Shown here piece by piece: positions 2,761 through 61,925 of a stretch of 62,028 nt of DNA; within the stretch, counting starts at the first letter, position 1; every line of letters starts with the position of its first letter. The notes beneath the pieces are model-generated. The model was given only the letters and a program-made list of their open reading frames with translations. It was not told where the DNA came from and ran no database searches. A program made the position numbers and the translations under genes. The DNA comes from Candidatus Gottesmanbacteria bacterium. GTDB lineage: Bacteria; Patescibacteriota; Microgenomatia; JAMCYU01. The DNA is taken from NCBI GenBank assembly GCA_043801155.1, contig JAZDMI010000020.1:1-62028 (forward strand). The letters run 5' to 3'.

Positions 2761-3491
2761 ATTAATTCCCCCCAAAATAATGCAATTATTGTTGATCCAA
2801 CTAGGAATGGACCAAAGGGAATATGACTTTTTAATTTTTTTCTGCCTACTAAAATTAGTATTACACCAAATAAAGCGCCTGTCAAGAAGGCTAGATATAA
2901 AGCAATTATAATCTTGGGAAATCCCAGGAATAATCCCATTAAGAGCGTTAATTTAATATCTCCGAAACCCATTCCCCGACCACGTGTTATTAAAAAAAGT
3001 AGTAGGAAAAGACCAGCGGCCAGTATACCTGACACCATGTAATTTAGTATTAAGTATTTAGTATTAAGTACTATGTATAAAACCGAAATAATTATCGCTG
3101 GATAAATAATTTGGTCGGGGATAATTTCATGTTCTAAGTCAATAAAGAAGATAACAATAAGGGCGTAGATAATGAGTAAGTAATAAGTAGTTAGCAGATA
3201 GTCTAAATTACTGAATACTGAATAGTGGATAATGAATAGTGTTAATATCGCAGTTATTAACTCCACCAGCGGATAACGCCAACTAATGGGGGAATGGCAA
3301 TGACGACATCGCCCGCGGAGAAAAAGAAAAGAGAGAAGAGGAATATTATTATACCAGAAAATCTTCTGTTTACACTTTGGACAAAATGATCGGCCAGTAA
3401 TTGACAATCCCAGAGGAAGACGATAAATTAAAACATTAAAAAATGACCCAAAACACAAACCAATAATAAAAAGAAAAATATAAATCATCAT
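2733..3491 (-). CDS. pilD: prepilin peptidase (A24 family)
   Basis: Zn-finger-like CPKC..CRHC in the first cytoplasmic loop, polytopic TM profile, and a GFGDIKL aspartyl motif. Confidence 0.85.
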   Translation of the reverse strand: MMIYIFLFIIGLCFGSFFNVLIYRLPLGLSITGRSFCPKCKQKIFWYNNIPLLSFLFLRGRCRHCHSPISWRYPLVELITAILTLFIIHYSVFSNLDYLLTTYYLLIIYALIVIFFIDLEHEIIPDQIIYPAIIISVLYIVLNTKYLILNYMVSGILAAGLFLLLFLITRGRGMGFGDIKLTLLMGLFLGFPKIIIALYLAFLTGALFGVILILVGRKKLKSHIPFGPFLVGSTIIALFWGELIWSKILLVF

Positions 3492-4745
3492 TTATAAATT
3501 GATAAAAGGGTATCCTCCCCAATAAGAGTACATATAAAAAAGGTTAATAAAAACACTATAAACTATTAATATTTTATGAGAAAAAAGTAGTTTACCATTA
3601 AAGGATTTTAATAATATTAGAAGTAAAAAAGGATAGAAATCCATTGCATAACGATAACCATATTGAATGTATCCGATACCATAATAAGTCATAATTGGTA
3701 TTGCGATTATGACAATAGTTAATATCTCATTAAAACTTTTTTTCAGTCCAGGTAAAAAGAAAGGTAATATAAATAATGGCGAGGTAAAAATTATACTTAA
3801 TCCCCAACCATCATGTCCCAAATAGGGAAAAGTCGCAATGTTAGTATTCGGTTCAACAAATATATCAAAACCTTTAAAAAATAAATAATAAAGATTTGTA
3901 GGTATATGATGAAAAGAAAATAATCCGTATCTTAGAGCCGCCTGGAAATCTGTACTTAAAGAAATTGCAGTGTTGTATCTAAATCCAGTTTCCAAAAAAT
4001 TTCCAAAGCGTACGAAATTGTAAAGAAATAAAATAATTAATATTAAGACTATGGGTGTTAATAATTTGACAAGGTTGATTAATTTCTGATTGATTGATTT
4101 TTTATCTTGAATTAAAGTCAAAATAAAAAAAATTAAGGTAAGAAAAAGATTAATCCTGGTAGCCATCGCCATTGATATATAGAAACCCATAAGAAAATAT
4201 CTTTTATTATTCAGGTATTCATTTATACTTAATAAGATAAAAAGCAGGCCGATAATTTGAGTTTGATAAGCAGAAAAAAATATTAAGGCTACTGAAGCAA
4301 CAAGAGTCCCAAAAACGAAAAATATTGCCAACCACCAAGAATCTGTTTTTTGAAATCGAAATTTTTTTGCAATTTTATAAACAAGTAAAAAACAGATAAT
4401 GGATGAAAACAGGGAGACAAGACTTGATGGATATCTATCTCCTTTCATTAAAACTCCTGGGATCGCCAAGATAGCTGGTAATGGTCCAAAATATACATAG
4501 TATTTTCCTTTATAAAGAGCCAAGTCGGCATTAGGGAAACGGTATGATCCAGGTTGTAAATCAAGTCTTCCTTTGATTAAGCTTTGAGCCAAAAGGGTAA
4601 AATGATTATCAATGGCTCTTGGTGTTGCGGTATTATAGAAATTAAATGCTATCGTAAGATATTTTAAAGAGAAAATTAAACAAAAAATTAAAATAGTCAT
4701 TAAAAATATATATTTTTTTATTAATAATTGCTTCTGTTTATTCAT
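3492..4745 (-). CDS. polytopic membrane protein, GT-C-like glycosyltransferase candidate
   Basis: 417 aa with at least 10 hydrophobic helices and an ArnT/PMT-like overall profile. No sharp motif was seen. Confidence 0.4.
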   Translation of the reverse strand: MNKQKQLLIKKYIFLMTILIFCLIFSLKYLTIAFNFYNTATPRAIDNHFTLLAQSLIKGRLDLQPGSYRFPNADLALYKGKYYVYFGPLPAILAIPGVLMKGDRYPSSLVSLFSSIICFLLVYKIAKKFRFQKTDSWWLAIFFVFGTLVASVALIFFSAYQTQIIGLLFILLSINEYLNNKRYFLMGFYISMAMATRINLFLTLIFFILTLIQDKKSINQKLINLVKLLTPIVLILIILFLYNFVRFGNFLETGFRYNTAISLSTDFQAALRYGLFSFHHIPTNLYYLFFKGFDIFVEPNTNIATFPYLGHDGWGLSIIFTSPLFILPFFLPGLKKSFNEILTIVIIAIPIMTYYGIGYIQYGYRYAMDFYPFLLLILLKSFNGKLLFSHKILIVYSVFINLFYMYSYWGGYPFINL

Positions 4746-4746
4746 A

Positions 4747-6261
4747 TTAGTTATTTAATAATTTGAATATTTTGTACGCTTGGTTATCAAATACTTTTTC
4801 CTTAGGTAACACCTTATCAAGATAGGAATAAATATCTGATGTCCATGGATTAGACATACCGTATGTTTGGTAAATAATATAATCGGCATTGTCATTTTCT
4901 GGATCACGGCCGATTGGTCTACCGGTTAAGTATGATATTTCAGGAGCTCTGTAAATTCCAATACCGGATATTTTTTTTACATAAGGTATAGATATATTGA
5001 CAAAATTTGCTGTTTCTTTTTGTTTTTTTAACAACAAATTTTCTTTAAAATATGGAGTTTTACTTTCTCCGACGAAGAGAAGATTTTGTTCTACAAGCTT
5101 GGTTAAATTAATAGCAGGATTATTTAATCTCTTTCTCTCGATAAAAGAATCAACTATAAAAATACTAATAAATAATAATAAAAGTACTATTTTATTCTTG
5201 TTTAATTTTTTTAAAAATACAGTTAAAAAATAGGGGATAATAATTATAAATGACAGAATCGAAGGAAAAAAATATCTATACCAATTAGTTGAACATATAA
5301 AGAGAAAGTATAAAGAGAAAAATAATTGAAAAAGGGCAACCATTTTAAAGAATATGATTTCTTTCTTACTCTTAGTAAATAGCACATATATACCAATAAA
5401 AAGCATGATTGTTATAAATAAAATTGGATTTAGGAAAAAAACATAATTAATCATTCTTAGACGATCATAGAACGCAAGAGGATTGGGATGTGATAATGAT
5501 CCATTAAATATTATGGTACTTGACCATATTTCTATGAATTTTGGCAAATTAAATTGGATAGAGATCAAAATATATAGATTCCATAATATTAAAATCATCA
5601 GCCCACCTGCTATAATTATTGACAGATTTTGAATTTGTTTATTATAATCTTTATTTGTAATAACCTGCATAAACCAAACTATTATAATTGGGATAATACT
5701 GATAAAAAAAATATTTTTTGTTAACACAGACAAGGCAATAAAAATACCTGTTAAAAAATATTTCTTTTTAGTAAAAAAGTAATAACTAAATATAAGCAGG
5801 GTAAGAGCAGGAATTTCTCCTAATACATGAGTCGAGAAAAAAAAGAATAATGGAGTAAATAATACAAGGACAAGAAATATAATTTTTTGATTATCCAAAA
5901 TGTATATATGTTTAAGCAATAACCAAAGTAACACTATTACATATATATTTATAACTAATCTTGGTAGGAATGGCAGAATAGTATTTACGAATAAAGATGC
6001 TGGGATTATAACAGTAGGGCCGGTCGTTATATTATAATCAAACAATCTTTCAAATGAGGCATATGTCAAATGGTAACGAAGATTTGTACTAACTTGAAGG
6101 AATACGCCTTCATCAAAATCATATGAAGCATTTATGGTTTGGGATATTAATACGATCAAAATATAGAAGAATAATAGGCGTATTAAAAATCGGATATTAT
6201 TATTAATAGATTGGTAATTTATTACTAAGTTATGTTTAAAAAAGTGACGATTTTCCATCAT
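4747..6261 (-). CDS. polytopic membrane protein, GT-C (GT39/83-like) glycosyltransferase candidate
   Basis: 504 aa and multi-TM. A YDFDEGVF motif directly after TM1 resembles the acidic DE motif in the first loop of ArnT/PMT-type enzymes. Confidence 0.45.
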   Translation of the reverse strand: MMENRHFFKHNLVINYQSINNNIRFLIRLLFFYILIVLISQTINASYDFDEGVFLQVSTNLRYHLTYASFERLFDYNITTGPTVIIPASLFVNTILPFLPRLVINIYVIVLLWLLLKHIYILDNQKIIFLVLVLFTPLFFFFSTHVLGEIPALTLLIFSYYFFTKKKYFLTGIFIALSVLTKNIFFISIIPIIIVWFMQVITNKDYNKQIQNLSIIIAGGLMILILWNLYILISIQFNLPKFIEIWSSTIIFNGSLSHPNPLAFYDRLRMINYVFFLNPILFITIMLFIGIYVLFTKSKKEIIFFKMVALFQLFFSLYFLFICSTNWYRYFFPSILSFIIIIPYFLTVFLKKLNKNKIVLLLLFISIFIVDSFIERKRLNNPAINLTKLVEQNLLFVGESKTPYFKENLLLKKQKETANFVNISIPYVKKISGIGIYRAPEISYLTGRPIGRDPENDNADYIIYQTYGMSNPWTSDIYSYLDKVLPKEKVFDNQAYKIFKLLNN

Positions 6262-6367: not shown

Positions 6368-7999
6368 ATGAAAAAACTTTGGTTACTCACAATCATCATC
6401 TTTCTAATTTATTTTCATCCGTGGAATAAAGATTTTCCTCTTCCAGTCTATAATACTAAGGAGTCTTTTAACAAAACCTTCAGCAACTATTTTTATTATA
6501 GTTCTGAAATCAAACGCGGTAATCTCCCGTTTTGGAATCCTCTAGTCGCAAATGGCAGTACATTTTTAGCACAAACTGATTACTCCCTATTTAATCCTTT
6601 AACCCTGATCGTTTTAAGGTTTTTACCTTTCCCTTTAAATTTGAAGATTTTATATCTGATTAGTTTTTTAATAGCATCCACCGGTATGTTTCTTTTCTTA
6701 AAATCCCTCAAGCAGAAAGGAAATGCTTTTGCCGGTACTTGCATTTTCGTCTTTTTTGGTCCATTCTTGTCGATGGTAAGCGATCTGAATGTCTTACAAA
6801 CTCTAAGTTTAGTCCCTTGGATCTTTTTATTAGTCAATAAATCATTAGCTCTTGGAGGTCTCGTTATAGCTCTACAGGTTCTCTCTGGTCCATTTGAACT
6901 AACATTATTAACGCTTTTTTTTGTCCTAATCTATTATCGTTCCATAAGGGTTATTTGGACGATGATTGCCGGCTTATGTTTATCTTCTATCAAGCTTATA
7001 ACCTTTTTTGATATTTCTAGTTTAACCATTGCCCCTTTGCAGTATTTTTATGTAGCTTCTACAAACATAAATAGTATTCGATTCTTTTATCCAAGTATTG
7101 TTACAATTATTTCCGTTTTCTTTATAAGAAAAAATGTCATTTATTTATTTTTAGTTATTTTTTGTTTATTAATGGCGTTTCCGGCAATATCACCTCTCTA
7201 TATTCTGTACTTGACCCCGCCATTTTTTTGGATTAATCGCCCAGAAATATTTTTAAGTTTTGCCGGGTTTTTCCTTGGCGCTATAGTATCAATAAACTGG
7301 CGTCGATTATTTATAATCATCTTGTTTATCGAGCTTATCGTTTTTAACTTTCTCAATTTACCTAAGGAAACAGCTGGTCAAATTATGGTAAGTCTTGAAA
7401 AGAAATATCCGTTCATCAATAAAATACAGAAAGAAAAGGCTAAAATTTGGTTTAATGATAGTGTCTTAAGTACACAGATCGAGCCCTTAGAACCAAATAA
7501 TAATTTACTATGGGGTATAACCTCATTAAATAGCTACGAACCAGGAACCAAAAGACATCAAACATATCTATCATTACTTAATCCTAGTGCTAACAGACTT
7601 CTAAGTATACAATCAGTCAAATACCAAGTTAATCCGTTTAAAAGTATAAATAACCCCTTGCCTGAAGTGTATACCGCTAATAAAATTACGTTAGTCAAAA
7701 CTACTGAACAATTGATAGATCTTTTACTTGATAAGAAGTTTAGTCCAGAAAAAGAATCGTTAGTTGAAGAAAAACTTAGATCTACTAAAATTACTATTGT
7801 CACCCAAAGTTATTCCAAACTCTTTAAAAATGTTGTCCCGGTTAATCTTGATCAGCAAGGTATGGTCGGAGATAGAAAATCTTCATTAGATTTGCAGAGT
7901 TTAAAAATTGGGATAACCATTACTTTAATTTCGCTTATTTTTCTAATTCTTTTAAATTTCTCTCGCTGGCAGCTTTTTTTTCACCATAAATCTGGTTAA
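6368..7999 (+). CDS. large polytopic membrane protein (YfhO/GT-C-like)
   Basis: 543 aa with many TM helices and a soluble C-terminal region. Family assignment is tentative. Confidence 0.4.
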   Translation: MKKLWLLTIIIFLIYFHPWNKDFPLPVYNTKESFNKTFSNYFYYSSEIKRGNLPFWNPLVANGSTFLAQTDYSLFNPLTLIVLRFLPFPLNLKILYLISFLIASTGMFLFLKSLKQKGNAFAGTCIFVFFGPFLSMVSDLNVLQTLSLVPWIFLLVNKSLALGGLVIALQVLSGPFELTLLTLFFVLIYYRSIRVIWTMIAGLCLSSIKLITFFDISSLTIAPLQYFYVASTNINSIRFFYPSIVTIISVFFIRKNVIYLFLVIFCLLMAFPAISPLYILYLTPPFFWINRPEIFLSFAGFFLGAIVSINWRRLFIIILFIELIVFNFLNLPKETAGQIMVSLEKKYPFINKIQKEKAKIWFNDSVLSTQIEPLEPNNNLLWGITSLNSYEPGTKRHQTYLSLLNPSANRLLSIQSVKYQVNPFKSINNPLPEVYTANKITLVKTTEQLIDLLLDKKFSPEKESLVEEKLRSTKITIVTQSYSKLFKNVVPVNLDQQGMVGDRKSSLDLQSLKIGITITLISLIFLILLNFSRWQLFFHHKSG

Positions 8000-22005: not shown

Positions 22006-22041
22006 ACTTTCTTCATTATTCATCATCTATTGACATACTTG

Positions 22042-22067
22042 TATATGATATATTAATATATCATATA
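22042..22067. promoter_or_regulatory. perfect 26-bp palindrome (operator candidate) over the promoter and start codon of the TrpR-like gene
   Basis: TATATGATATATTAATATATCATATA equals its own reverse complement. It overlaps a putative -10 TAATAT (22054-22059), and its last base (22067) is the A of the ATG at 22067-22069. TTGACA lies at 22030-22035. Confidence 0.55.
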
Positions 22068-22456
22068 TGACCCACGTATCGAAGAAAAAATTGTCCGAAC
22101 AGACTTTCGAAGAAATAAAGAATACCTTTCTTCTTGTCCTTACCGAAATTAATAATAAACAGGCAATGAGTGAATTTTTAGATGTCTTTTTATCTACGAC
22201 CGAAAAAGAGATGCTGGCCAAAAGATTAGCGATAATTTATCTATTAGACAATGGTATTCCTGAAACAAATATTGCTCAATTACTTCATGTAACCCAATCT
22301 ACAGTCTCGTTAATGAAATTAAAATATGAAAACAATCAGCCGGGTTTTCAATGGGCAATTAGCCAAATAAAAAAACAAAAGTTATTACAGAATATCGAGA
22401 TATTAGCATTGCGCTTCGCCAAATACGCCGTCCGTGCTTCCGGTGGAAGAATATGA
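22067..22456 (+). CDS. TrpR-related YerC/YecD-family DNA-binding protein
   Basis: LSTTEKEMLAKRLAIIYLL..GIPETNIAQLLHVTQSTVS looks like a helix-turn-helix of the Trp repressor family. Confidence 0.6.
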   Translation: MTHVSKKKLSEQTFEEIKNTFLLVLTEINNKQAMSEFLDVFLSTTEKEMLAKRLAIIYLLDNGIPETNIAQLLHVTQSTVSLMKLKYENNQPGFQWAISQIKKQKLLQNIEILALRFAKYAVRASGGRI

Positions 22457-22856: not shown

Positions 22857-23786
22857 CTATTTATTACCGCTGTGAAAGGTGTCATGGATGTCTTTTAATC
22901 GTTTGTTAGTTACATGGGTATAAATAACGGTGGTACTGATACTTGAATGACCTAACATCTCCTGAACGCTGCGGATGTCAGCTCCGGCAATAAGAAGATC
23001 GGTGGCAAAACTATGTCTTAGAGTGTGCGGTGTTGCCTGGATTGGTAAACGTGCTTTGATAACATATTTTTCCACCAAACGTTCCACTGATCTGGCAGTC
23101 AACCGTAAAGTTTCACCGTCTTTCCCGGGATCTAATGTTTTACCGCTGTAGCGGATAAACAATGGTTTGTAGAGGTCCTGGCGAGCTGCTAGATATTTTT
23201 TAATCCAGCCAGCCGACCCGGATGACAAATAAACAACTCTGGATTTTCTACCTTTTCCAATAACACCAAATTCACGACGGTCTAAATTTATTTGATCTTT
23301 ATTCAACGAAGTCAGTTCTGATACCCGTAAACCAGTTGAGAATAATGTTTCCAGTATGGCTTTATCACGAAGCCCTGGCGGTGTACTTATATTAGGCTGA
23401 TTAAGTAATCTTTCAATTTGCTCATTATCGAGAAATTTTATTTGCACTGATTGGTCTTTTTTTGGCAATTCAATTCTTTTTGGCGCTAAGCTCTTTATTT
23501 CTTGCCTTTCCAAATAGCCTAAAAAGGCTCGCAGAATTATTACATGATAAACTTGGGTTCTTTTTGATAAAGGTAAATTATGAACGATTAAGCGGGCTAA
23601 ATAAATCCGGTATTTTTGGACCATATCCAGTGATAAATCAGTAATGGTTATTTTAGGATAGTTAGTCTCAAGCCATCTCTGGAATCGGGCCAGATATAAG
23701 CGATAATTTCTTATTGTCAGTTCCGAACAGCTTCGTTCAATTTCTAAATATTCTAAATATTTATCTATAGCTTCAGTAAAATTCAT
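22857..23786 (-). CDS. xerC: tyrosine recombinase, XerC/XerD type
   Basis: N-terminal SAM-like domain, HTLRHSFATDLL, and the C-terminal catalytic block GHSSISTTVIYTHV. Length is 309 aa. Confidence 0.85.
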   Translation of the reverse strand: MNFTEAIDKYLEYLEIERSCSELTIRNYRLYLARFQRWLETNYPKITITDLSLDMVQKYRIYLARLIVHNLPLSKRTQVYHVIILRAFLGYLERQEIKSLAPKRIELPKKDQSVQIKFLDNEQIERLLNQPNISTPPGLRDKAILETLFSTGLRVSELTSLNKDQINLDRREFGVIGKGRKSRVVYLSSGSAGWIKKYLAARQDLYKPLFIRYSGKTLDPGKDGETLRLTARSVERLVEKYVIKARLPIQATPHTLRHSFATDLLIAGADIRSVQEMLGHSSISTTVIYTHVTNKRLKDIHDTFHSGNK

Positions 23787-24972
23787 ATTATATTATAAAT
23801 AGGGGAGTCTTCCAGGAATAGGCATATAAAGATCAGGTATTAGGCAATAGGGATTAGGCCTTATATAAACATGCATAATTATTTAATTTAAATTAATTAC
23901 ATTAAATAGTGCAAATATAATATTAACAGATTTGACCTCTTCTCCGGAACCAGCCTTGCCTGACGTCGTAAAAGCTTGGTTATACGACATCATAGATAAT
24001 TTATCCTCCGTTGTCAAGTATCAATAAATAACAAGTTTTTACCTGGGTTCCGTAAGAACACGATAAATGTTTATATTCCCGGGAAGAAGATGAAGGTCTT
24101 CTCCAAGACCACGATCATGATTAATGAAACATTCATAATCGTTCTTTACCGAATATAAGATAACATTAGTGTCTTATCCAATATACTTAGGTTTCTAGAA
24201 GCTTACACGACCTTGTGTATTTAGATTGTTAATATGCTCTAAATATATAATTTCGTGCGTAGATAAGTATGTCATTAATAAGGAAATATTCAATAGCTAG
24301 AGCATAATGGCAACTTAAACTTGTATAATTGTGGCCAATTATTATCGTTATACTGTAATTAATTATATATCCTGGTTATAGAGAGGTTTCGGTTTTTTTA
24401 TGGTCTAGTACTAAGAATGAATTTAGAGCATAACAATGCCATAAATTAATATTTTTGAGGCTAACGTAAAATATAATGACATATGGAAATTATACGAATA
24501 TAGAGCGTATTAGCGTGATAAGCAACTAGTTTCGAGGTCACAAATATAACGCCGATATAATTATCCCCAGCACCCGAAGCATGTAATTGCTGACTAAACT
24601 ATGTTTTTTAATATCAAGCTTATTTAGCTTGTCAGGACAAGATAAATTATCGTTTTTGTGGCTAATATATTTGGAAAATAATAATGGTATGAAGATGCAG
24701 AGCATAATAACGAGCTATATTAATATTTTTATGCGTAAATTTGGTGTTCATTTCATCGCAAGGTCAGAAGAGTGCGCTTGCGGTGAACGTAGAAACCGTG
24801 AAAACAATTCCCGAATCCCGTGAAAAGAGTAGTAAGAAGTTATTCCGCGTGAGTTATCCACAACGCGTCTAAATTACTATAGGTTAGTATATTCAAATGA
24901 CTTAACTATATCAAACTATATCTTGCCACTTCCCTCTTCCCCACCACCAAGTCCAATTTTTTTGATATGATC
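23787..24972. other. ORF-free AT-rich region with DnaA-box-like words and an iteron-like motif (candidate origin, or dif/terminus locus, or RNA gene)
   Basis: No credible ORF. A perfect TTATCCACA lies at 24854-24862, with several one-mismatch boxes. The AGAGCATAA-type word occurs five times. Confidence 0.3.
24233..24707. repeat. cluster of five AGAGC(A/G)TA(A/T) words
   Basis: Copies at 24233-24243 (minus), 24298-24307, 24422-24433, 24501-24510 and 24698-24707. Confidence 0.7.
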
Positions 24973-25788
24973 TTATCCCCATATTGTTGTTATTAATACC
25001 AGGATAAAAACGACAACCGATACTGAAATAAATTCAGTAACTGTTCTATGGAAAAGCCTTTCGACCAGATATTGCTGAATCATACCAACCAGGCTATAAA
25101 AAATAGTCGTTAGGAAAAGAGATTCGATGATTGTCTGAATCGGCCAGAATGAAAAGATTATGGCCAATTCGCCGCCGATAAGCGATATTATTAAACAATA
25201 AATGAACAATTGCCAAGAAATTTTTGGTTCTAGCTTCATTGCCCATAAACATTGAAGGCTTAATAAACTATAGATAATAAAAATTAAAATAAAATTTTCT
25301 GCAAAAGGAAGATGAAGTGAAAAAATAATATTTAAGAGTAAAAATAAAGTAAATAAAGTGAGAAATAGACCGACTGAATGAGCTGCTCTTAATAACTGAA
25401 TCGTTCTCTCAGCCGCCACATTATAGATATTTTCAATAAGGAGAATTGCATAAATTCCCACAGCAAAAATAATGTCTATTGGTAGTCTAGTCAACCAACG
25501 AACTGGTAACAAAAAATAAAATAACGGCATGGCAATAACGTACGTAATTGGTAAGATAAATAATGTTAGCCATTCAATACCATTAAGGTCTTCCCATAAA
25601 CCCCAAACAAAAAGCACGTATGTTAAAACAGCTAATCCAATAATAAGATGGTAGCGAAAATTCGGGCCTAGAACTTGAATTAATAAGAGACCGCCTGTTA
25701 AAACACCTACAATTAAACCAAATTTTTCTCTTTTGGTTAAAAATAATTTATGGCTTAGATGGGTATAAAATTTTTTAATCCTTTTTAT
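24973..25788 (-). CDS. polytopic membrane protein, unknown function
   Basis: Multi-TM profile. The start at MIKRIKKF avoids a long overlap with ruvC. Confidence 0.5.
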   Translation of the reverse strand: MKRIKKFYTHLSHKLFLTKREKFGLIVGVLTGGLLLIQVLGPNFRYHLIIGLAVLTYVLFVWGLWEDLNGIEWLTLFILPITYVIAMPLFYFLLPVRWLTRLPIDIIFAVGIYAILLIENIYNVAAERTIQLLRAAHSVGLFLTLFTLFLLLNIIFSLHLPFAENFILIFIIYSLLSLQCLWAMKLEPKISWQLFIYCLIISLIGGELAIIFSFWPIQTIIESLFLTTIFYSLVGMIQQYLVERLFHRTVTEFISVSVVVFILVLITTIWG

Positions 25789-26293
25789 CATGGATTGAAA
25801 AACAGATGGCCAGGGCAAGAGCATCAGCGGCATCATCTGGTCGAGGGAGTTTATAAAGCCCTAAGGTTCTTCTGACAAATTGTTGGATTTGATGTTTAGA
25901 AGCATGGCCGTCGCCTACCAACTTCTTTTTAACCCAAAGTCCCTGGTATTCACAGGTGGTGATTTTCTGCTCGGCGGCTGTTACCATTACTACTCCCCTT
26001 GCCTGACCAACAGTCATGGCTGTTTTGGCATTTCTTCCAAAAAATAATTGTTCAATTATGATTGTCTGTGGCTTATATAGGCGAATTATTTTTCGTAAAT
26101 TTTGCCGAAGCATTAATAGTCTCTCCCCCATTATCATACCTACTGGTGTTTTAATAGTTCCATGGGCTACATAAACTAATCCGTCATTTTTAACCTTTGT
26201 GTTTCGACAATTCATTTTTATCACACCAAAGCCGGTAGTGGCTGTTCCGGGATCAATACCGAGAATAGTTTGCATGTTTGTTTGAATTTTCAT
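25775..26293 (-). CDS. ruvC: Holliday junction resolvase RuvC
   Basis: ILGIDPGTATTGFGVI, and a C-terminal DAADALALAI. Confidence 0.9.
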   Translation of the reverse strand: MKIQTNMQTILGIDPGTATTGFGVIKMNCRNTKVKNDGLVYVAHGTIKTPVGMIMGERLLMLRQNLRKIIRLYKPQTIIIEQLFFGRNAKTAMTVGQARGVVMVTAAEQKITTCEYQGLWVKKKLVGDGHASKHQIQQFVRRTLGLYKLPRPDDAADALALAICFSIHDKKD

Positions 26294-52107: not shown

Positions 52108-53163
52108 TTAAACTATCAAACAAGCTCTTTTTATTCTTTGTTCTCTAAACATTTTACTTTCCTCGCTTGATATACCAAGAATTCCTTCTAAATCATCGCT
52201 GTTTTTAGATTTATCATCCAATATGACAGTACCGCTCATACGCCAAACAAGTTGGAATAAACGATAAGTGTCGTGCTGTAAAAAGGTATTTATTCTGTCC
52301 TTATTTATTCTTATAACTAGTATCGGCGGTTTGGTTGGAGGATTTTTAACCAACTCACTATATGCCCAATAAGATCTAATATCGTCGGCAAAAATGATAT
52401 TTTCTTTTCCAAAATCACCTATTTTTTTCCTGGTTTCTTCTTTAGTCGTCTTGGATAAAAATAAAAGGCCTTCATGGGGTAATGGAGCAACAATTCTAGT
52501 TTGAACAATATAAAATTCCGTTGTTACTGAAGTCCTTACATCATATCTGCCAACAAATTCCATTTGATAAGCATAACTTTGTCCTTGTTTATTAAAAAGC
52601 TCTTTTGCTTGCTGGTGCATGTTAAAAGCTTTTAAAAGACATTCTCTGTCAACACCTTCGTACGAACTATAATCATTAGTAACCTCGAAATCTAAACCAA
52701 AAGAGGCATACCCTCTTCTGGGTAAGTGTATACCTTGGGCTAAAACCATTTCTTGTCCGTTATCCATGGTAATAACCCTAAAATTGGCATGTCTTATCAT
52801 TCTTTGAAGAAAAAAGTCAGCTTTCAATTTGTTTGGATGAATACCACTGGCTTTACAATAATTCCCTATCTCGTCATTGGTATACGGATGGAATGGGTTT
52901 TCTCTTCTCGTTTTTAAAAATTTTTCCCAGCCTTTTTTCGAATAGATATCGTCTGTCGACAGAACATTAATTAAATAATTATCATTTATACCTATGACCC
53001 TTCCTCGTGCTACGACAGCTTCACCTCTATTGATATGTCCTTCCGCTATTTCCCAATCGGTAAAAATTTCAGGAACAGGAAAACCGTGACTGGCCAAAAA
53101 CTGTTGGCCTGTAAGTTTATCCAACTCTCCAAAAGGGGTTTGTAATACTTCGTGGCTGTTCAT
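52108..53163 (-). CDS. hypothetical protein (weak ATP-grasp-like N-terminus)
   Basis: LTGQQFLASHGFPVPE resembles ATP-grasp N-terminal segments. Otherwise unrecognised. Confidence 0.35.
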   Translation of the reverse strand: MNSHEVLQTPFGELDKLTGQQFLASHGFPVPEIFTDWEIAEGHINRGEAVVARGRVIGINDNYLINVLSTDDIYSKKGWEKFLKTRRENPFHPYTNDEIGNYCKASGIHPNKLKADFFLQRMIRHANFRVITMDNGQEMVLAQGIHLPRRGYASFGLDFEVTNDYSSYEGVDRECLLKAFNMHQQAKELFNKQGQSYAYQMEFVGRYDVRTSVTTEFYIVQTRIVAPLPHEGLLFLSKTTKEETRKKIGDFGKENIIFADDIRSYWAYSELVKNPPTKPPILVIRINKDRINTFLQHDTYRLFQLVWRMSGTVILDDKSKNSDDLEGILGISSEESKMFREQRIKRACLIV

Positions 53164-54426: not shown

Positions 54427-55818
54427 CTAGAACTCTCTTGGTTGAACTGGAATAGCAGCTAAACGGTTAATTATAGCTTGCCCTTTATATTCCTGAACTT
54501 TTCCCGTCCATTTATCGGGCCTTTCCAGATAGCTATTTAACATATAGGCTGAACGATGATGACAATTTGCTTCCGTTGGTTTGAACTCCCATACATTAGT
54601 AAACTCAAATAGACTTATTGCTTCTTCAGTTTCTTCAACCATAGCTAAAAAACATTTTTTTGTGACTTCTGCCTGATAATCATCTTCCCAAAGATTACTA
54701 GAAGTCTGTGGTTCTAATAACTTACCCCATAATCTATTAAATTGCTCGTCTGATAATTTCATCAATCGCATCTCATCCTTTTTTCTAAAAGCTCTGTAAT
54801 CAGCAAAATCTCTGAAACACAGATAATATAACGTTGGATCCATACGGTCTAATAGTTCGTAATCCTGGGAATTTTTGGCTTTTTTGATATAAGGAACGAA
54901 TTTAGGTTTTTCTACTAACCCTACATGGGAAATTTCATCTAGGGTAAAGTGTGTTTCTCTTGGAACAATTAAAGGAGCTTCTAAGGTTATGGCTAAAGTA
55001 GGAATTCCATAGGCTGCACCTTGGTAAGGATGTGCAGAAGTAAAATATACATCTTGACGGCTTGCTCCCGTTGCAGCTCGTTCTCCCGAACCATGAGTTC
55101 CAGTTGTAAAACCATAAGGCAAAGGAATTCCCCAAGTCGTACTTAATTCTCTTCCTTGGGCAATATGAACTTTTTGTAATTGGGTAAAATAATAACGGTT
55201 ATAATCATGACCAAATGTATCTTCAAAGGCTCTAGTATTTTTTTCTGCTTTAGGGTCAATTACTATTTCTACTCCTTTTGCTAAATGGGGGAAAAGATAA
55301 ATAGCCCTGTTTAAAAGGTCATTAAGTTTTTCTTCTATTTCCTGTATCCCTTTATCTGTTTTATCCCTTGTTTTGAGCTCGGAAAATAACTCTCCGATGC
55401 GTTCATTGATTCCGTGAAGACCTTTTCTTTCAACAATGTCTATATATTGTAAATCAAGAATTAAGTCTCTTAACCTATCTGTAGCCCCAAAACCTACTTG
55501 TTCAGCTTTAAATGGTTCTAATTTTTCATGAAGTTGAGCTGCACTAACTGTTTTTCCCCCGTCATAAACTAATTTTTGTCCTGACCAATCGCCCACAGTA
55601 TCAAGAACTTCTGCAAGTCTAAGTCTAGTCTGAATAACTGATTGAGAAGTTGAGGGATATTTATCTGAATCATCAACAGCCTCTTTACGAATTTCACTAA
55701 CTCTCGCATTTACTGAAAGAGTTAAAGGTGAAACCTCAGAAATAGGTAATGGTTCAAAATCTTTTGGTCTTATCATATAATATTGCCGATTATAGGCTAA
55801 ATTATTGATATAAGTCAA
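54427..55818 (-). CDS. hypothetical protein (463 aa from the TTG; alternative ATG at 55776)
   Basis: Long open frame with no recognised motif. Confidence 0.4.
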   Translation of the reverse strand: MTYINNLAYNRQYYMIRPKDFEPLPISEVSPLTLSVNARVSEIRKEAVDDSDKYPSTSQSVIQTRLRLAEVLDTVGDWSGQKLVYDGGKTVSAAQLHEKLEPFKAEQVGFGATDRLRDLILDLQYIDIVERKGLHGINERIGELFSELKTRDKTDKGIQEIEEKLNDLLNRAIYLFPHLAKGVEIVIDPKAEKNTRAFEDTFGHDYNRYYFTQLQKVHIAQGRELSTTWGIPLPYGFTTGTHGSGERAATGASRQDVYFTSAHPYQGAAYGIPTLAITLEAPLIVPRETHFTLDEISHVGLVEKPKFVPYIKKAKNSQDYELLDRMDPTLYYLCFRDFADYRAFRKKDEMRLMKLSDEQFNRLWGKLLEPQTSSNLWEDDYQAEVTKKCFLAMVEETEEAISLFEFTNVWEFKPTEANCHHRSAYMLNSYLERPDKWTGKVQEYKGQAIINRLAAIPVQPREF

Positions 55819-56034: not shown

Positions 56035-56814
56035 ATGTTAGATAAAGACCAGCAAAACACCCACTTGTCCAATGAAACTCTTATTTATTCACTTCTTAAA
56101 CGGTTGCAAGACCCTGTTTATTTACCAGCCTTAGCAGAAGTAAACGAACTTTTGGAATTGAATAAGGCAGTAAAAGTAAGTATGGGAAAATTTGAACAGG
56201 AACATTCTATATATGAATTTTGGACAAGGGAATATATAGAAACACTTAGTGGATATCTTAAAGAACGAATAATCTCCTTGCGTTTAAGAGATAAAAAAAT
56301 CATAACGATTCTGGATACAGGAGCAGGAGACGGACGGTTGTGTTATTTCTTAAGAATGAGTAAGAATTTATCCCCCTTATTGGACATCTGTAGAATTATA
56401 GCGAGTGATAACGGATCTTGGAAAATCACTCCACAATTCCACGTAGAAAAATTAGATTATAAAGAAGCTCTAGAAAAATGTAAGCCGGATATAGTCTTAT
56501 GTTCATTTATGCCTCGTGGAGAGGACTGGACGGCAGCATTTCGAGAACAGCCAAGCGTAAAAGAGTACATCATAATTGGCGATACCGATTGTACTGGAAA
56601 TGATGATACTTATGGGTATGGGGAAGGTTGTTCGGCAAACTATGATAATGGAAGTTTTGAGATTACTAACCTAAATTATACACCCCCACACGAAAGAGAT
56701 GGCTTTACTCGAACTAATCTGTTTTTTAGTAGACTAAATCATTGTGTATATGATAACGATTTTATCCCCGATCGCTCAAGGACACTTTCTTTCAGAAGAA
56801 CAGAATCAGCATAA
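56035..56814 (+). CDS. hypothetical protein, class I methyltransferase-like
   Basis: ILDTGAGDGRL resembles SAM motif I. Confidence 0.4.
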   Translation: MLDKDQQNTHLSNETLIYSLLKRLQDPVYLPALAEVNELLELNKAVKVSMGKFEQEHSIYEFWTREYIETLSGYLKERIISLRLRDKKIITILDTGAGDGRLCYFLRMSKNLSPLLDICRIIASDNGSWKITPQFHVEKLDYKEALEKCKPDIVLCSFMPRGEDWTAAFREQPSVKEYIIIGDTDCTGNDDTYGYGEGCSANYDNGSFEITNLNYTPPHERDGFTRTNLFFSRLNHCVYDNDFIPDRSRTLSFRRTESA

Positions 56815-58110: not shown

Positions 58111-58839
58111 CTAATCTGTTACCGGAACTCTTACAAACATATCTCCAGAATCCTTAGAGGACAGATATAAAGTCATACCAAATTCTATACATACCTGTTT
58201 ATTAAAATCTACGAGTCTTTCTCTGAAACTCCCTCTTTTCTTGCGCATAAATTCATCACGTAAGCTATCTAAACGTTTCGTTAGTTTTTCCTCACTCATA
58301 TTGTTCGGTGTTGCCGCCGTCTTCAAGGCTAACAAGGCCGTTTCACCATATATTAAGAGAAAAAATTGCATATTTTGATTTACAAGTAAATTAAAATAAT
58401 CTTTTCCTGAAAAACTTAATTGACCAGTTTTTGTCTCCGCTTTCGCATCTTTTGGTACATTATGAGAATGTAACAAACCAATATTTTTTTGAAACTGATC
58501 TCTTCCTGGTTGATATTTAACTTCTAATGTTACACTATGACCAGTACCTTCCACTGATTTTGTTACAAATAAAGTAGAACTTCGAGGGTCAGTATCCGCG
58601 ATAACTAACATACCCCATTCATGATGAGTTCTGTCAGTATTATCTCTTAATTCATTTCTATAAGTTCTAAACGGACCTAAATTAATAAAGTCAGGACGAT
58701 TATAAGCAGGAAGATAACTATCAGTGGCAGCAAGTACAATCTCTATATTTTTAAAACGTTGAAAATCCCAATATTTAGGAGCTGTTAATTGTTCTATATA
58801 ATTACTTAAAGAGGAACTTTCATTTTTGTCAGTATACAT
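58111..58839 (-). CDS. hypothetical protein with a possible JAB/MPN-like motif pattern
   Basis: HHEWGMLV ... LHSHNVP ... SFSGKDY loosely fits E..HxH..SxxD, but the spacing is atypical. Confidence 0.3.
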   Translation of the reverse strand: MYTDKNESSSLSNYIEQLTAPKYWDFQRFKNIEIVLAATDSYLPAYNRPDFINLGPFRTYRNELRDNTDRTHHEWGMLVIADTDPRSSTLFVTKSVEGTGHSVTLEVKYQPGRDQFQKNIGLLHSHNVPKDAKAETKTGQLSFSGKDYFNLLVNQNMQFFLLIYGETALLALKTAATPNNMSEEKLTKRLDSLRDEFMRKKRGSFRERLVDFNKQVCIEFGMTLYLSSKDSGDMFVRVPVTD

Positions 58840-60737: not shown

Positions 60738-61925
60738 TTAATCTGATTTTACAGCAAGCAGTGTTTTTCTTTTTGCTTCTTTTAATATTTCAGCGGTATT
60801 TTGATTAAGTATCTTAAAATTCAATTCTAGTCCCCTATGGACAAGAACATTTTCTAAAAATTTTATCCCTGCCCAATCCAAGCTTTTTCTCCAATTATCA
60901 CTATATACTTCATCTGGATGAGAGAAAATATGAAAAATTCGTTTCTTTTGAGATAATCCTTTTATATACTGTAAAGCATAATTTCGTATGCTTGATGGAC
61001 AATATTCTTCTTGAGCAAAAATTTCATAACATCTTTTTATATCTAGATCCCACCGATTTTGCGCTGGATTTCCGTCTTTTCTTGGAAAACAATTAATTAT
61101 TCCATCTTTTTCCCCTTTAAAATTCGTGATGGTATTATCAAATTCTTGGCGCATCATCTCGGCCAGAAATGTTTTTATCATGTTAATTCTAACCTGTTCC
61201 TGTAATTTAAGACGCGGACCTTTGTATGCGTAAAGAAAACCAGCTGCCCGAGCGACAAGCCTATCTCCCCCATCTATAGAAAAAGTATTTTGACCCCTTA
61301 ACCAAAGCGCTAATGAGAATCGCGTTGCTAGGGTTGTAATACCGTCCAATGATTCTTCCGGGCTTGATGTCATCAGGAACCTGTAAACTGATCTAAGCTG
61401 GTAGGATGTATAAGGAATTCCTAAATCATCGAGTAAATATTTTACTGTCCCCCATTTTAAAAAATAATCAATTAAATAACTTACATGGGGTACTTTTTTT
61501 AAGGCCCGGGTAAGGACATTACTTTGTCTGATAGTCAAAGCTTTGACTAGTTTTTCTTCAATTCTCTTTAAATCTGTAATTCTTTTATTAATGTCTATAC
61601 TTATTTTGGATTGGTCGTATTGTTCCTGTAAACAAATTGCCGAAGCAATTGTGTCTCGGACAGTCCTTTCAACAGTATGAAAATTTAATCCATGATTATA
61701 TGCAACTGTAGCAGTATTTTTATCACTGACCTCTAATGCAAGTTCCAGACGTTTTTGAGGAGTTAGACTTGTTGGGCCAGGACCAGACGCTAATAGAGAA
61801 AGACCTCTGGTAATTTTCTCTCTTCCTTCATCCGTATTAAAAATACTATCCTTCTCAACAAAATGTCTTAGTACCTCTCGAGCTTTTAATATACCTATCT
61901 GTTCCCCTGTTTCTTTGTTTGCCAT
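60738..61925 (-). CDS. hypothetical protein (395 aa)
   Basis: Long open frame with no recognised motif. Confidence 0.4.
   Translation of the reverse strand: MANKETGEQIGILKAREVLRHFVEKDSIFNTDEGREKITRGLSLLASGPGPTSLTPQKRLELALEVSDKNTATVAYNHGLNFHTVERTVRDTIASAICLQEQYDQSKISIDINKRITDLKRIEEKLVKALTIRQSNVLTRALKKVPHVSYLIDYFLKWGTVKYLLDDLGIPYTSYQLRSVYRFLMTSSPEESLDGITTLATRFSLALWLRGQNTFSIDGGDRLVARAAGFLYAYKGPRLKLQEQVRINMIKTFLAEMMRQEFDNTITNFKGEKDGIINCFPRKDGNPAQNRWDLDIKRCYEIFAQEEYCPSSIRNYALQYIKGLSQKKRIFHIFSHPDEVYSDNWRKSLDWAGIKFLENVLVHRGLELNFKILNQNTAEILKEAKRKTLLAVKSD

Follow-up and report, generated by a model that had tools for sequence, protein, structure and literature searches.

The gap between a gene for a tyrosine recombinase of the Xer family (xer) and a DUF5656 gene was studied in a 62,028-bp stretch of Candidatus Gottesmanbacteria DNA, which as a whole is called the window in the following. 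This gap (positions 23787-24972, 1,186 bp) lacks a long open reading frame (ORF) and contains six copies of a 42-nt unit, each built around a 28-bp dyad, together with a second, unrelated 28-bp dyad that is present once. The repeated dyads look like putative sites for a dimeric DNA-binding protein, and the locus is conserved across Microgenomates, apparently without having been described previously. In the reading favored here, to which a probability of roughly 0.38 is given, the repeated dyads would be accessory sites whose number changes by recombination, and the single-copy dyad would be the core site of the Xer recombinase. Orientations are given relative to the strand of xer, which is the minus strand in the window ("xer-sense"), and L-numbers (L001, L002, etc.) label the xer loci of relatives, which were found by Xer homology.

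Identification of the 42-nt unit

An earlier note on this DNA had reported an iteron-like word, AGAGCRTAW, in five copies. Their coordinates and strands could be read directly from the sequence as reported, as could the intervals of 126, 77, and 197 bp between the plus-strand copies. The word has exactly five matches in the window, all inside positions 24232-24707 (476 bp) and none elsewhere. Compared to 2.06 expected matches, and with 6 of 100 shuffles reaching five, there is no overall excess, but the copies are clustered. AGAGCATA is the sole 8-mer of the window with at least three G or C that has at least four copies within 500 bp. In dinucleotide-preserving shuffles, a comparable cluster of any word was found in 2.7% of the cases when the whole window was shuffled and in 3.3% when 1.2-kb blocks were shuffled. 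The clustering is therefore real, and the word cluster alone is modestly significant with a family-wise p of about 0.03. The solidity of the finding comes, above all, from the comparison between genomes.

The word is the best-kept part of a unit of 42 nt, which reads in xer-sense AGCCTYAAAA, seven variable nucleotides, TTTAGNGCRT, four nucleotides, AYGCNCTAAA and a final T. It encloses a 28-bp dyad with 11-bp arms (ARTTTAGNGCR) and a 6-bp A + T-rich centre (TNNNNA), and the AGCCTYAAAA flank is located 7 nt upstream of this dyad. Using an iterated nhmmer profile, 49 ungapped units were detected in 18 genomes, all of them in xer-sense, and in the window the profile matches the gap only. Read on the plus strand, the word corresponds, as the reverse complement, to the last part of the centre and the 3′ arm of a unit, and the lone minus-strand copy (24233-24243) is the 5′ arm of another one (unit F). 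The GGAAAT flank that had been noted beside two copies is present at both places and belongs to the paralogous units C and E; it is separated from TAGAGC by 10 nt instead of the reported 11 nt.

The six units of the window (Table 1) start 78, 124, 77, 124, and 73 bp apart. This alternating spacing results in three two-site modules of about 200 bp each. The description of the spacing as irregular could not be upheld, as the 197-bp interval resulted from overlooking the degenerate unit B. The odd sites have a conserved 3′ half (TTATTATGCTCT), whereas the even sites are kept as full units. In unit A, ACGCATAAAA replaces AGCCTCAAAA and the 5′ arm is degenerate, with the 3′ half kept. Unit B (AGCCACAAAAACGATAATTTATCTTGTCCTGACAAGCTAAAT) gives a weak nhmmer match and is orthologous to strong B units in L001, L002, L005, L006, and L090. 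The best copy of the window is unit D (AGCCTCAAAAATATTAATTTATGGCATTGTTATGCTCTAAAT), with one mismatch to the dyad pattern and an E-value of 6.3e-9 against the whole window, and unit F has two mismatches and 8 of 11 paired arm positions.

The statement that the copies form neither a tandem repeat nor an array of clustered regularly interspaced short palindromic repeats (CRISPR) was borne out. The units are diverged and differ from the consensus at up to 16 of 42 positions, the spacing alternates, and the intervals of 31-82 bp between the units carry no genes and are conserved between genomes. The two-unit modules align at a mean column identity of 52%, which is too low for a detection by Tandem Repeats Finder, and a run of this program gave no hit.

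The number of units varies between the loci: six are present in the window and in L001, five in L005 and L006, and one or two in Levybacteria-type loci. In L087, a two-unit module (about 193 bp) was duplicated recently (2401-2790); the copies have long identical stretches in common, including CTATTCACCATACGCTATTCGCTATCATTAGCC, which shows the mode of array expansion. In L002, the left flank of the third unit is of the C type and its right flank of the D type, with the junction inside the dyad, which is the product expected when units recombine with each other. From both cases, we infer that the unit copy number changes through recombination between units.

Table 1. Features of the xer-DUF5656 locus in the window (module and site numbering in xer-sense).
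Feature	Position	Strand	Description
xer gene	22857-23786	-	Xer-family tyrosine recombinase, 309 amino acids; Pfam Phage_integrase, 5e-41
Single-copy dyad	23963-23990	-	ATGTCGTATAA-CCAAGC-TTTTACGACGT, 28 bp
Spacer	23991-24218	-	Last unit to single-copy dyad, length-constrained; 211-235 nt in 13 genomes
Unit F	24219-24260	-	Even site, module 3, last unit; nhmmer match 24258-24220
Unit E	24297-24338	-	Odd site, module 3; contains word copy 24298-24307; identified from alignments
Unit D	24421-24462	-	Even site, module 2; contains word copy 24422-24433
Unit C	24498-24539	-	Odd site, module 2; contains word copy 24501-24510; downstream flank (GGAAAT) common to unit E
Unit B	24622-24663	-	Even site, module 1; degenerate
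Unit A	24695-24736	-	Odd site, module 1; nhmmer match 24734-24699; contains word copy 24698-24707
DnaA-box cluster	24796-24862	-	Two TTTTCACGG boxes (24796-24804, 24818-24826), 8/9 to TTWTNCACA
Perfect DnaA box	24854-24862	+	TTATCCACA
Proximal conserved blocks	24876-24949	-	Adjoin DUF5656 stop, conserved in at least 31 loci: CCTATAGT (24876-24883), GATATAGTTTGATATAG direct repeats (24906-24922), G/A-rich tract (24927-24949)
DUF5656 gene	24973-25836	-	Constant neighbor upstream of the locus, followed by RuvC and YebC genes, all on the minus strand

Conservation of the locus in Microgenomates

Homologues of its Xer protein place the source of the window in the class Microgenomates of the Patescibacteria. 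In four relatives with Xer proteins 75-80% identical to that of the window, the genes follow the same order, and a gap of 961-1,200 bp takes the equivalent place. Three further close loci were joined to the comparison, and the gaps of the close relatives align at a mean column identity of 64%. Furthermore, 80 distant Xer loci (52-61% identity) from Levy-, Curtiss-, Woese-, Shapiro-, Gottesman-, and Daviesbacteria have retained the order YebC-(RuvC)-DUF5656-[non-coding locus]-...-Xer-...-GyrA. A non-coding locus of 0.6-1.2 kb between DUF5656 and xer is thus kept throughout Microgenomates. Besides the window, units are located in this same syntenic gap in seven other close and ten distant genomes, which makes at least 18 genomes with units. 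On the other side of xer from the gap, GyrA, an H+-pyrophosphatase, and GyrB are encoded on the plus strand of the window. The window gap was found in none of the public sequencing runs, and the literature search revealed no work on dif sites, replication origins, or conserved non-coding loci of Patescibacteria.

Some observations concern the records themselves. L001 and L006 are two versions of the syntenic locus on different contigs of the same assembly (GCA_040960625.1), with Xer proteins 80% and 75% identical to that of the window, and this assembly therefore mixes at least two related organisms. Many species-representative records labelled uncultured Gammaproteobacteria, Pseudomonadales, Dehalococcoidia, or Chloroflexi (among them L012-L016, L021, L023, L024, L026, L028, and L030) carry a Microgenomates Xer with about 55-61% identity, most of those listed also with the DUF5656-locus-xer synteny, and their taxonomic labels look wrong. 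In several lineages, a gene on the opposite strand is located between the non-coding locus and xer (e.g., L028:2549-3253, L036:2903-3826, L060:2992-3918); the gene inserted there encodes about 230 amino acids in some lineages and about 305 in others. In the window, the longest ORFs of RuvC (25775-26293) and DUF5656 overlap by 62 nt (25775-25836). Since this overlap is shorter or absent in relatives, the DUF5656 start is probably located downstream of the first ATG.

The units as putative sites of a dimeric protein

The conservation profile of the units is mirror-symmetric about positions 29/30, with T27 kept in 45 and A32 in all of the 49 units. At the variable symmetric pairs of these units, no covariation was detected. 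Pair 23-36 is Watson-Crick in 19 units compared to 20.0 expected for independent halves (Fisher p = 0.74) and unpaired in 23 of 49 units; for pair 24-35, 28 were counted and 27.3 expected, and for pair 26-33, 12 and 18.7, respectively. TTTAGNGCRT is conserved as a sequence in each half independently. This independent conservation without covariation argues for two half-sites read by a dimeric protein and against a stem, and the dyads look like putative sites of such a protein. The suggestion of repeated binding sites for one protein is therefore probably right.

Units of the Levybacteria type have GATTG/CAATC instead of GNGCR/YGCNC, i.e., both inner arms change together between lineages, which fits a protein whose specificity would have co-evolved with its sites. 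In three loci, all 11 arm positions are paired: L011 (AGTTTAGATTG-TTAAAT-CAATCTAAACT), L020, and L031 (ATTTTAGCGCG-TCAATA-CGCGCTAAAAT). The repeated units thus have the layout of a recombination core site (arms of about 11 bp, a partial dyad, and a centre of 6-8 bp), but they do not occur as one copy per chromosome.

The Xer recombinase and the single-copy dyad

The xer gene is the only tyrosine recombinase gene in the window. Its product scores 243 bits with the NCBIfam model of XerC, 231 bits with XerD, and 199.5 bits with XerA, all under the equivalog cut-offs, and the closest solved structure is XerD (PDB 1a0p, 4e-40). Judged by these matches, it is a generic Xer recombinase of XerC/D size and no orthologue of XerS or XerH. 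It carries a recognition motif of the XerC type (motif classes: PMC2958812). Ten alignment columns, six of them in the N-terminal domain, distinguish the Xer proteins that go with one site type from those that go with the other; this split is weak evidence for a link between protein and site, as the two groups also form separate clades.

The single-copy dyad emerged when the DNA upstream of xer was searched for any palindrome of the 11-6-11 type. Palindromes with at least 10 of 11 paired arm positions occur at 0.02 per locus in shuffled sequences. The dyad, with the consensus ATGTCG(C/T)ACAA-TAATAC-TTTT(A/G)CGACGT, was found in 58 of 89 loci, at most once in each and in one orientation only, and 16 of its 28 positions are invariant. 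It is located 171-3,774 bp upstream of xer in these 58 loci and 176 bp before the xer start codon in the window. Its one variable symmetric pair occurs in all four combinations, so the single-copy dyad also behaves as a protein site. In the window, its sequence overlaps with the last part of the -10 hexamer of the xer promoter, which consists of a TTGACA -35 element (24017-24012), a 17-bp spacer, and a TATGAT -10 element (23994-23989) and matches the consensus at 11 of 12 positions. In distant loci such as L028, L036, and L060, the dyad yields spurious ORFs starting with MSYNNTFAT.

The inner arm ends of the single-copy dyad (ACAA...TTTT) are close to those of bacterial dif (ATAA...TTAT), and 13 of 28 positions match the dif site of E. 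coli. As a 28-bp 11-6-11 site that is intergenic, conserved class-wide, linked to xer, and present in a single copy per locus, it is a better candidate for a dif-like core than the repeated units. The GCATAA core of the word, on which the likeness to dif proposed in the earlier note was based, does not align in register with the XerC arm of the E. coli site, although the full 28-bp dyad of the unit has the 11-6-11 layout. The adjacent recombinase, which was named as a possible binder of the word, is plausible in this role, but Xer more probably acts at the neighboring single-copy dyad. Mobile elements as carriers of the sites were rejected, as viral contigs lack the single-copy dyad; the seven matches of the unit type are chance palindromes in unrelated contigs.

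Architecture of the locus and the favored reading

All units are located upstream of the single-copy dyad, on one side of it, and share one orientation. The distance between this dyad and the last unit is fixed as well, with 253-277 bp in 13 of 16 genomes and 270 bp in the window, while the unit number ranges from two to six. The sequence of the spacer between them diverges between lineages. It contains a GGAGAAG purine block opposite a pyrimidine tail, with a terminator-like hairpin at 24110-24095, and a small conserved ORF was searched for in it and not found. Likewise, the spacing of 73-77 bp within the pairs recurs across lineages (73-78 bp in the window). Fixed distances without sequence conservation suggest that array and dyad form one assembled protein-DNA structure.

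At the far end, next to DUF5656, further motifs are conserved in at least 31 loci. These are the G/A-rich tract, two to four direct GATATAGTNT repeats with a 10-bp period, CCTATAAT/TATAGG, the perfect DnaA box, and two TTTTCACR boxes (8/9 to the DnaA-box consensus). In each close relative, the perfect DnaA box has no second one within about 15 kb, and its position is kept in distant Microgenomates. The order of the far-end blocks is permuted in L045, L057, and L082. Equivalents of the block are located, e.g., at L036:1740-1846 and L060:1744-1850, with no dnaA nearby. A cluster of ATATGATAT at 22040 was considered as a relative of the GATATAG repeats and rejected, as it is a separate and unrelated operator.

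In the favored reading, the single-copy dyad would be the Xer core site, comparable to dif, and the units would have an accessory or architectural role in a recombination locus linked to xer. The protein bound to the units, which may not be the adjacent recombinase, would fold the DNA into a defined complex, and this complex would control when and how Xer acts at the core.

A dif site kept beside a single xer gene has a precedent in xerS/difSL and xerH/difH. The xerS gene immediately adjoins difSL (PMC5357621), and difH is located 16-282 bp from xerH in many species (PMC2731167). The likeness comprises one Xer gene with a nearby near-palindrome of about 28-31 bp in intergenic DNA of low G + C content, both inherited as a module. 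In contrast to these systems, there are here two families of 28-bp dyads that are unrelated to each other, with a single copy of one and 1-6 copies of the other, a conserved non-coding region of 0.6-1.2 kb, and an Xer protein of 309 amino acids that is not orthologous to XerS or XerH.

For the array, the role of the units would, by analogy, be comparable to that of the accessory sequences of cer/psi or the subsites of transposon res. The cer site consists of a 30-bp core and accessory DNA bound by ArgR and PepA (PMC5357621). Like cer/psi and the internal resolution sites of transposons (res/IRS), the locus has extra sites on one side of a core in a fixed geometry, which is thought to impose a defined synapse. 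Unlike cer/psi, the array is chromosomal, class-wide, and made of repeated 28-bp dyads. Taken together, the locus looks like a variant of the xer-dif module with an expandable accessory array and a DnaA-box block.

Several observations weigh against the accessory-site model. No candidate for an accessory protein was found. The array measures about 520 bp within a locus of 1.2 kb, compared to accessory regions of about 180 bp in cer/psi, and the units of the window are more degenerate than those of its relatives. In many genomes, inserted genes separate the locus from xer, so that part of their linkage may be due to a general conservation of gene order. The model does not account for the conserved DnaA box, the TTTTCACR boxes, or the GATATAG repeats. 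Finally, low-power tests detected no skew switch at the locus, as an FtsK-dependent dif site at the terminus would have. Archaeal dif is not located at 180° from the origin and works without FtsK (PMC5357621).

An extension of the model that includes the DnaA boxes would be a compound locus of about 1 kb, in which a dif-like core at the xer promoter, an expandable array, and a DnaA-box cluster with 10-bp direct repeats would stand in fixed order and spacing next to the single xer gene and in which the resolution of chromosome dimers would pass a topological filter built by the array, independent of a terminus, and would be coupled to DnaA and thereby to the replication cycle. In this full form, it is unlikely.

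Alternative explanations

According to a first alternative, which we regard as rather doubtful, the units themselves are the Xer substrates, i.e., directly repeated dif-like cores that are kept stable by their differing centres, and the single-copy dyad is the operator of xer. The units share their 11-6-11 geometry with canonical Xer core sites (PMC5357621), and in three genomes the palindrome is perfect. Among the published dif sites of E. coli (GGTGCGCATAA-TGTATA-TTATGTTAAAT) and B. subtilis (ACTTCCTAGAA-TATATA-TTATGTAAACT; PMC3025954), the XerD arm of B. subtilis, AGTTTACATAA, is matched in register at 8 of 11 positions by each arm of L011. The Levybacteria-type loci hold just one or two units, as would be expected for dif, and the central hexamers differ within each genome, except for the recently duplicated pair of L087. 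The junction of the L002 hybrid is located in the dyad centre, and six of the ten Xer columns that separate the site types belong to the N-terminal domain.

On the other hand, the single-copy dyad fits a core better, being far more conserved, present once, and close to dif in its inner arm ends. The Xer motif is of the XerC type, yet the unit arms resemble the XerD arm. Differing centres are also expected from random drift, and the differences in the Xer columns are confounded with phylogeny. With canonical dif (XerCD, XerA), the units share the 11-bp arms, the partial dyad, the 6-bp centre, and the location in intergenic DNA of low G + C content, but they are multi-copy, and their inner arms do not end in the near-universal ATAA/TTAT. 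The presence of several dif-like sites has a precedent in the pdif/dif modules of Acinetobacter, in which several Xer-type 28-bp sites are present per replicon and modules are gained and lost (PMC12907356, PMC10132070). Those modules carry genes and have sites in alternating orientation, whereas here the intervals are gene-free and conserved and the sites are direct repeats. A likeness to archaeal dif, for which the outer TTTAG/CTAAA of the P. abyssi site (ATTGGATATAA-TCGGCC-TTATATCTAAA; PMC2958812) was considered, was rejected because the motifs are out of register (14 nt apart here, 18 nt there). Archaeal dif also has conserved flanks and inverted repeats nearby (PMC2958812).

Equally doubtful is a second alternative, in which the units are bound by an unrelated transcription factor or nucleoid-associated protein that organizes or silences this stretch, and the link to xer is a matter of gene order. 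Dyad-symmetric sites with independent half-sites are what such a protein would use. Where genes have been inserted, the array stays with DUF5656 and not with xer. The same locus holds the DnaA box, the GATATAG repeats with their 10-bp period, and CCTATAAT/TATAGG, and the permutation of the blocks in three loci points in the same direction. A 28-bp 11-6-11 site is long for a typical helix-turn-helix operator, however, and no conserved regulator gene adjoins the locus, the TrpR-like and GerE-type genes not being conserved neighbors. The fixed distance of 253-277 bp ties the array to the single-copy dyad. Likenesses to CIRCE and to the KorA operator were rejected due to wrong spacing. The units were also considered as sigma-70 promoters, with the loop as -10 element 17 bp from TTAAAA. 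Two points led to the rejection of this idea: the invariant T27 and A32 do not correspond to A2 and T6 of TATAAT, and AGCCTC, the best-conserved part, does not look like a -35 element.

A third alternative, that the array is part of a xer-sense transcript (the 3′ untranslated region of the DUF5656 operon or a non-coding RNA) whose units form hairpins binding or titrating an RNA-binding protein, is improbable. All units are on one strand, and species-specific G + C-rich hairpins with GAAA- or UUCG-type loops are read correctly on that strand only. Behind the array, there is a terminator-like hairpin whose tail is rich in T and C, and in the unit stems 42 G-T pairs contrast with 17 A-C pairs. 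The excess of G-T pairs is explained by the marginal base frequencies, however, and a unit hairpin was rejected due to the lack of covariation, with almost half of the units unpaired within the stem at pair 23-36. Similarly, the hairpins behind the array were rejected as proof of sense transcription, since their stems are weak and not clearly compensatory. Folding z-scores for sense and antisense are -6.1 and -3.9 in L060, which favors the sense strand, but 0.0 and -0.3 in L001 and -2.2 and -4.0 in the window; the window and L005 favor the antisense strand. As these values are inconsistent between strands and genomes, one large structured RNA was rejected as well, and neither the units nor the locus show the compensatory changes and the consistently stable folding of a structured RNA. 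Rfam families were rejected as the identity of the gap, since no match was found in it at the gathering thresholds or even at E-values up to 10, and ARAGORN gave no match in the gap.

The last alternative considers the gap as the chromosomal origin or as a DnaA-control locus of the datA/DARS kind, with the units as iterons or origin-regulator sites. Arrays of one site are known from plasmid iterons, from the five CtrA sites of the Caulobacter origin, which are the model for the origin-regulator reading, and from sopC of plasmid F with its twelve 43-bp repeats, each containing an inverted repeat. The locus resembles such arrays in having several copies of one site in one non-coding region with DnaA boxes nearby. 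It differs from them as no initiator or partition gene adjoins it, as skew and gene orientation give no sign of an origin, and as the repeats are 28-bp dyads instead of 17-22 bp repeats. An origin would agree with the presence of several repeated motifs in a single long intergenic region, with the class-wide conservation of a perfect DnaA box next to two or three 8/9 boxes at one end, with an A + T-rich tract at the opposite end, and with the nearby gyrB and gyrA genes.

The gene content and composition around the gap do not. A Pfam scan of the ORFs of the window, which is the firmer evidence here, revealed no dnaA or dnaN within 24-37 kb of the gap, and none was found within 4-7 kb in about 85 loci with B. 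subtilis queries, which is to be taken as a lead only; no rep gene is located beside the locus. There is a single strong DnaA box, the number of DnaA boxes in the window is at chance level (7 vs. 7.4 expected), and about 900 bp separate the A + T-rich tract from the boxes. The genes on both flanks are directed toward the gap, as are about 80% of the genes in the 37 kb to its right. The strand-independent component of the pooled GC skew at four-fold sites shows no switch, with +0.19 and +0.16 on the two sides (paired difference -0.008 ± 0.034, n = 15), in a test that is confounded since a given gene never changes its side or strand; a skew test on the window only and a k-mer polarity test were without power. 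A replication origin at the gap is unlikely, oriC was rejected on these grounds, and the interpretation of the word as an iteron in the sense of an initiator site was not sustained; including a DnaA-control locus, this last alternative is very improbable.

Other features of the window

The segment 22031-22066 comprises a TTGACA promoter and, behind it, a perfect inverted repeat of 12 bp (TATATGATATAT-TA-ATATATCATATA), which reaches as far as the start codon of the TrpR-like gene (22067-22456). This repeat forms the strongest k-mer cluster of the window, is unrelated to the units, and is probably the regulator's own operator.

The region 3001-6000 has a G + C content of 0.24-0.30 and, unlike the rest of the window, a positive GC skew despite its minus-strand genes; it may be horizontally acquired or a surface-polysaccharide region. 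Two large ORFs at or beside the right end of this stretch (4747-6261 and 6368-7999) have no Pfam match. Five further ORFs of 242-463 amino acids (52108-53163, 54427-55818, 56035-56814, 58111-58839, and 60738-61925) match no Pfam family at E-values up to 1e-5.

Significance

Patescibacteria have small and packed genomes, so a non-coding stretch of 0.6-1.2 kb that is kept class-wide must matter. If the locus is a xer-dif module with an accessory array, it would give a first view of chromosome dimer resolution in these reduced and uncultivated bacteria. With defined 28-bp sites and one recombinase, the system would be testable in vitro without culture, and the locus would serve as a landmark to orient and check assembled genomes of the group. 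The conserved DnaA box raises a possible link to replication control. Furthermore, the locus would be a test case for the control of Xer by accessory sites on a chromosome, as it is known from plasmids.

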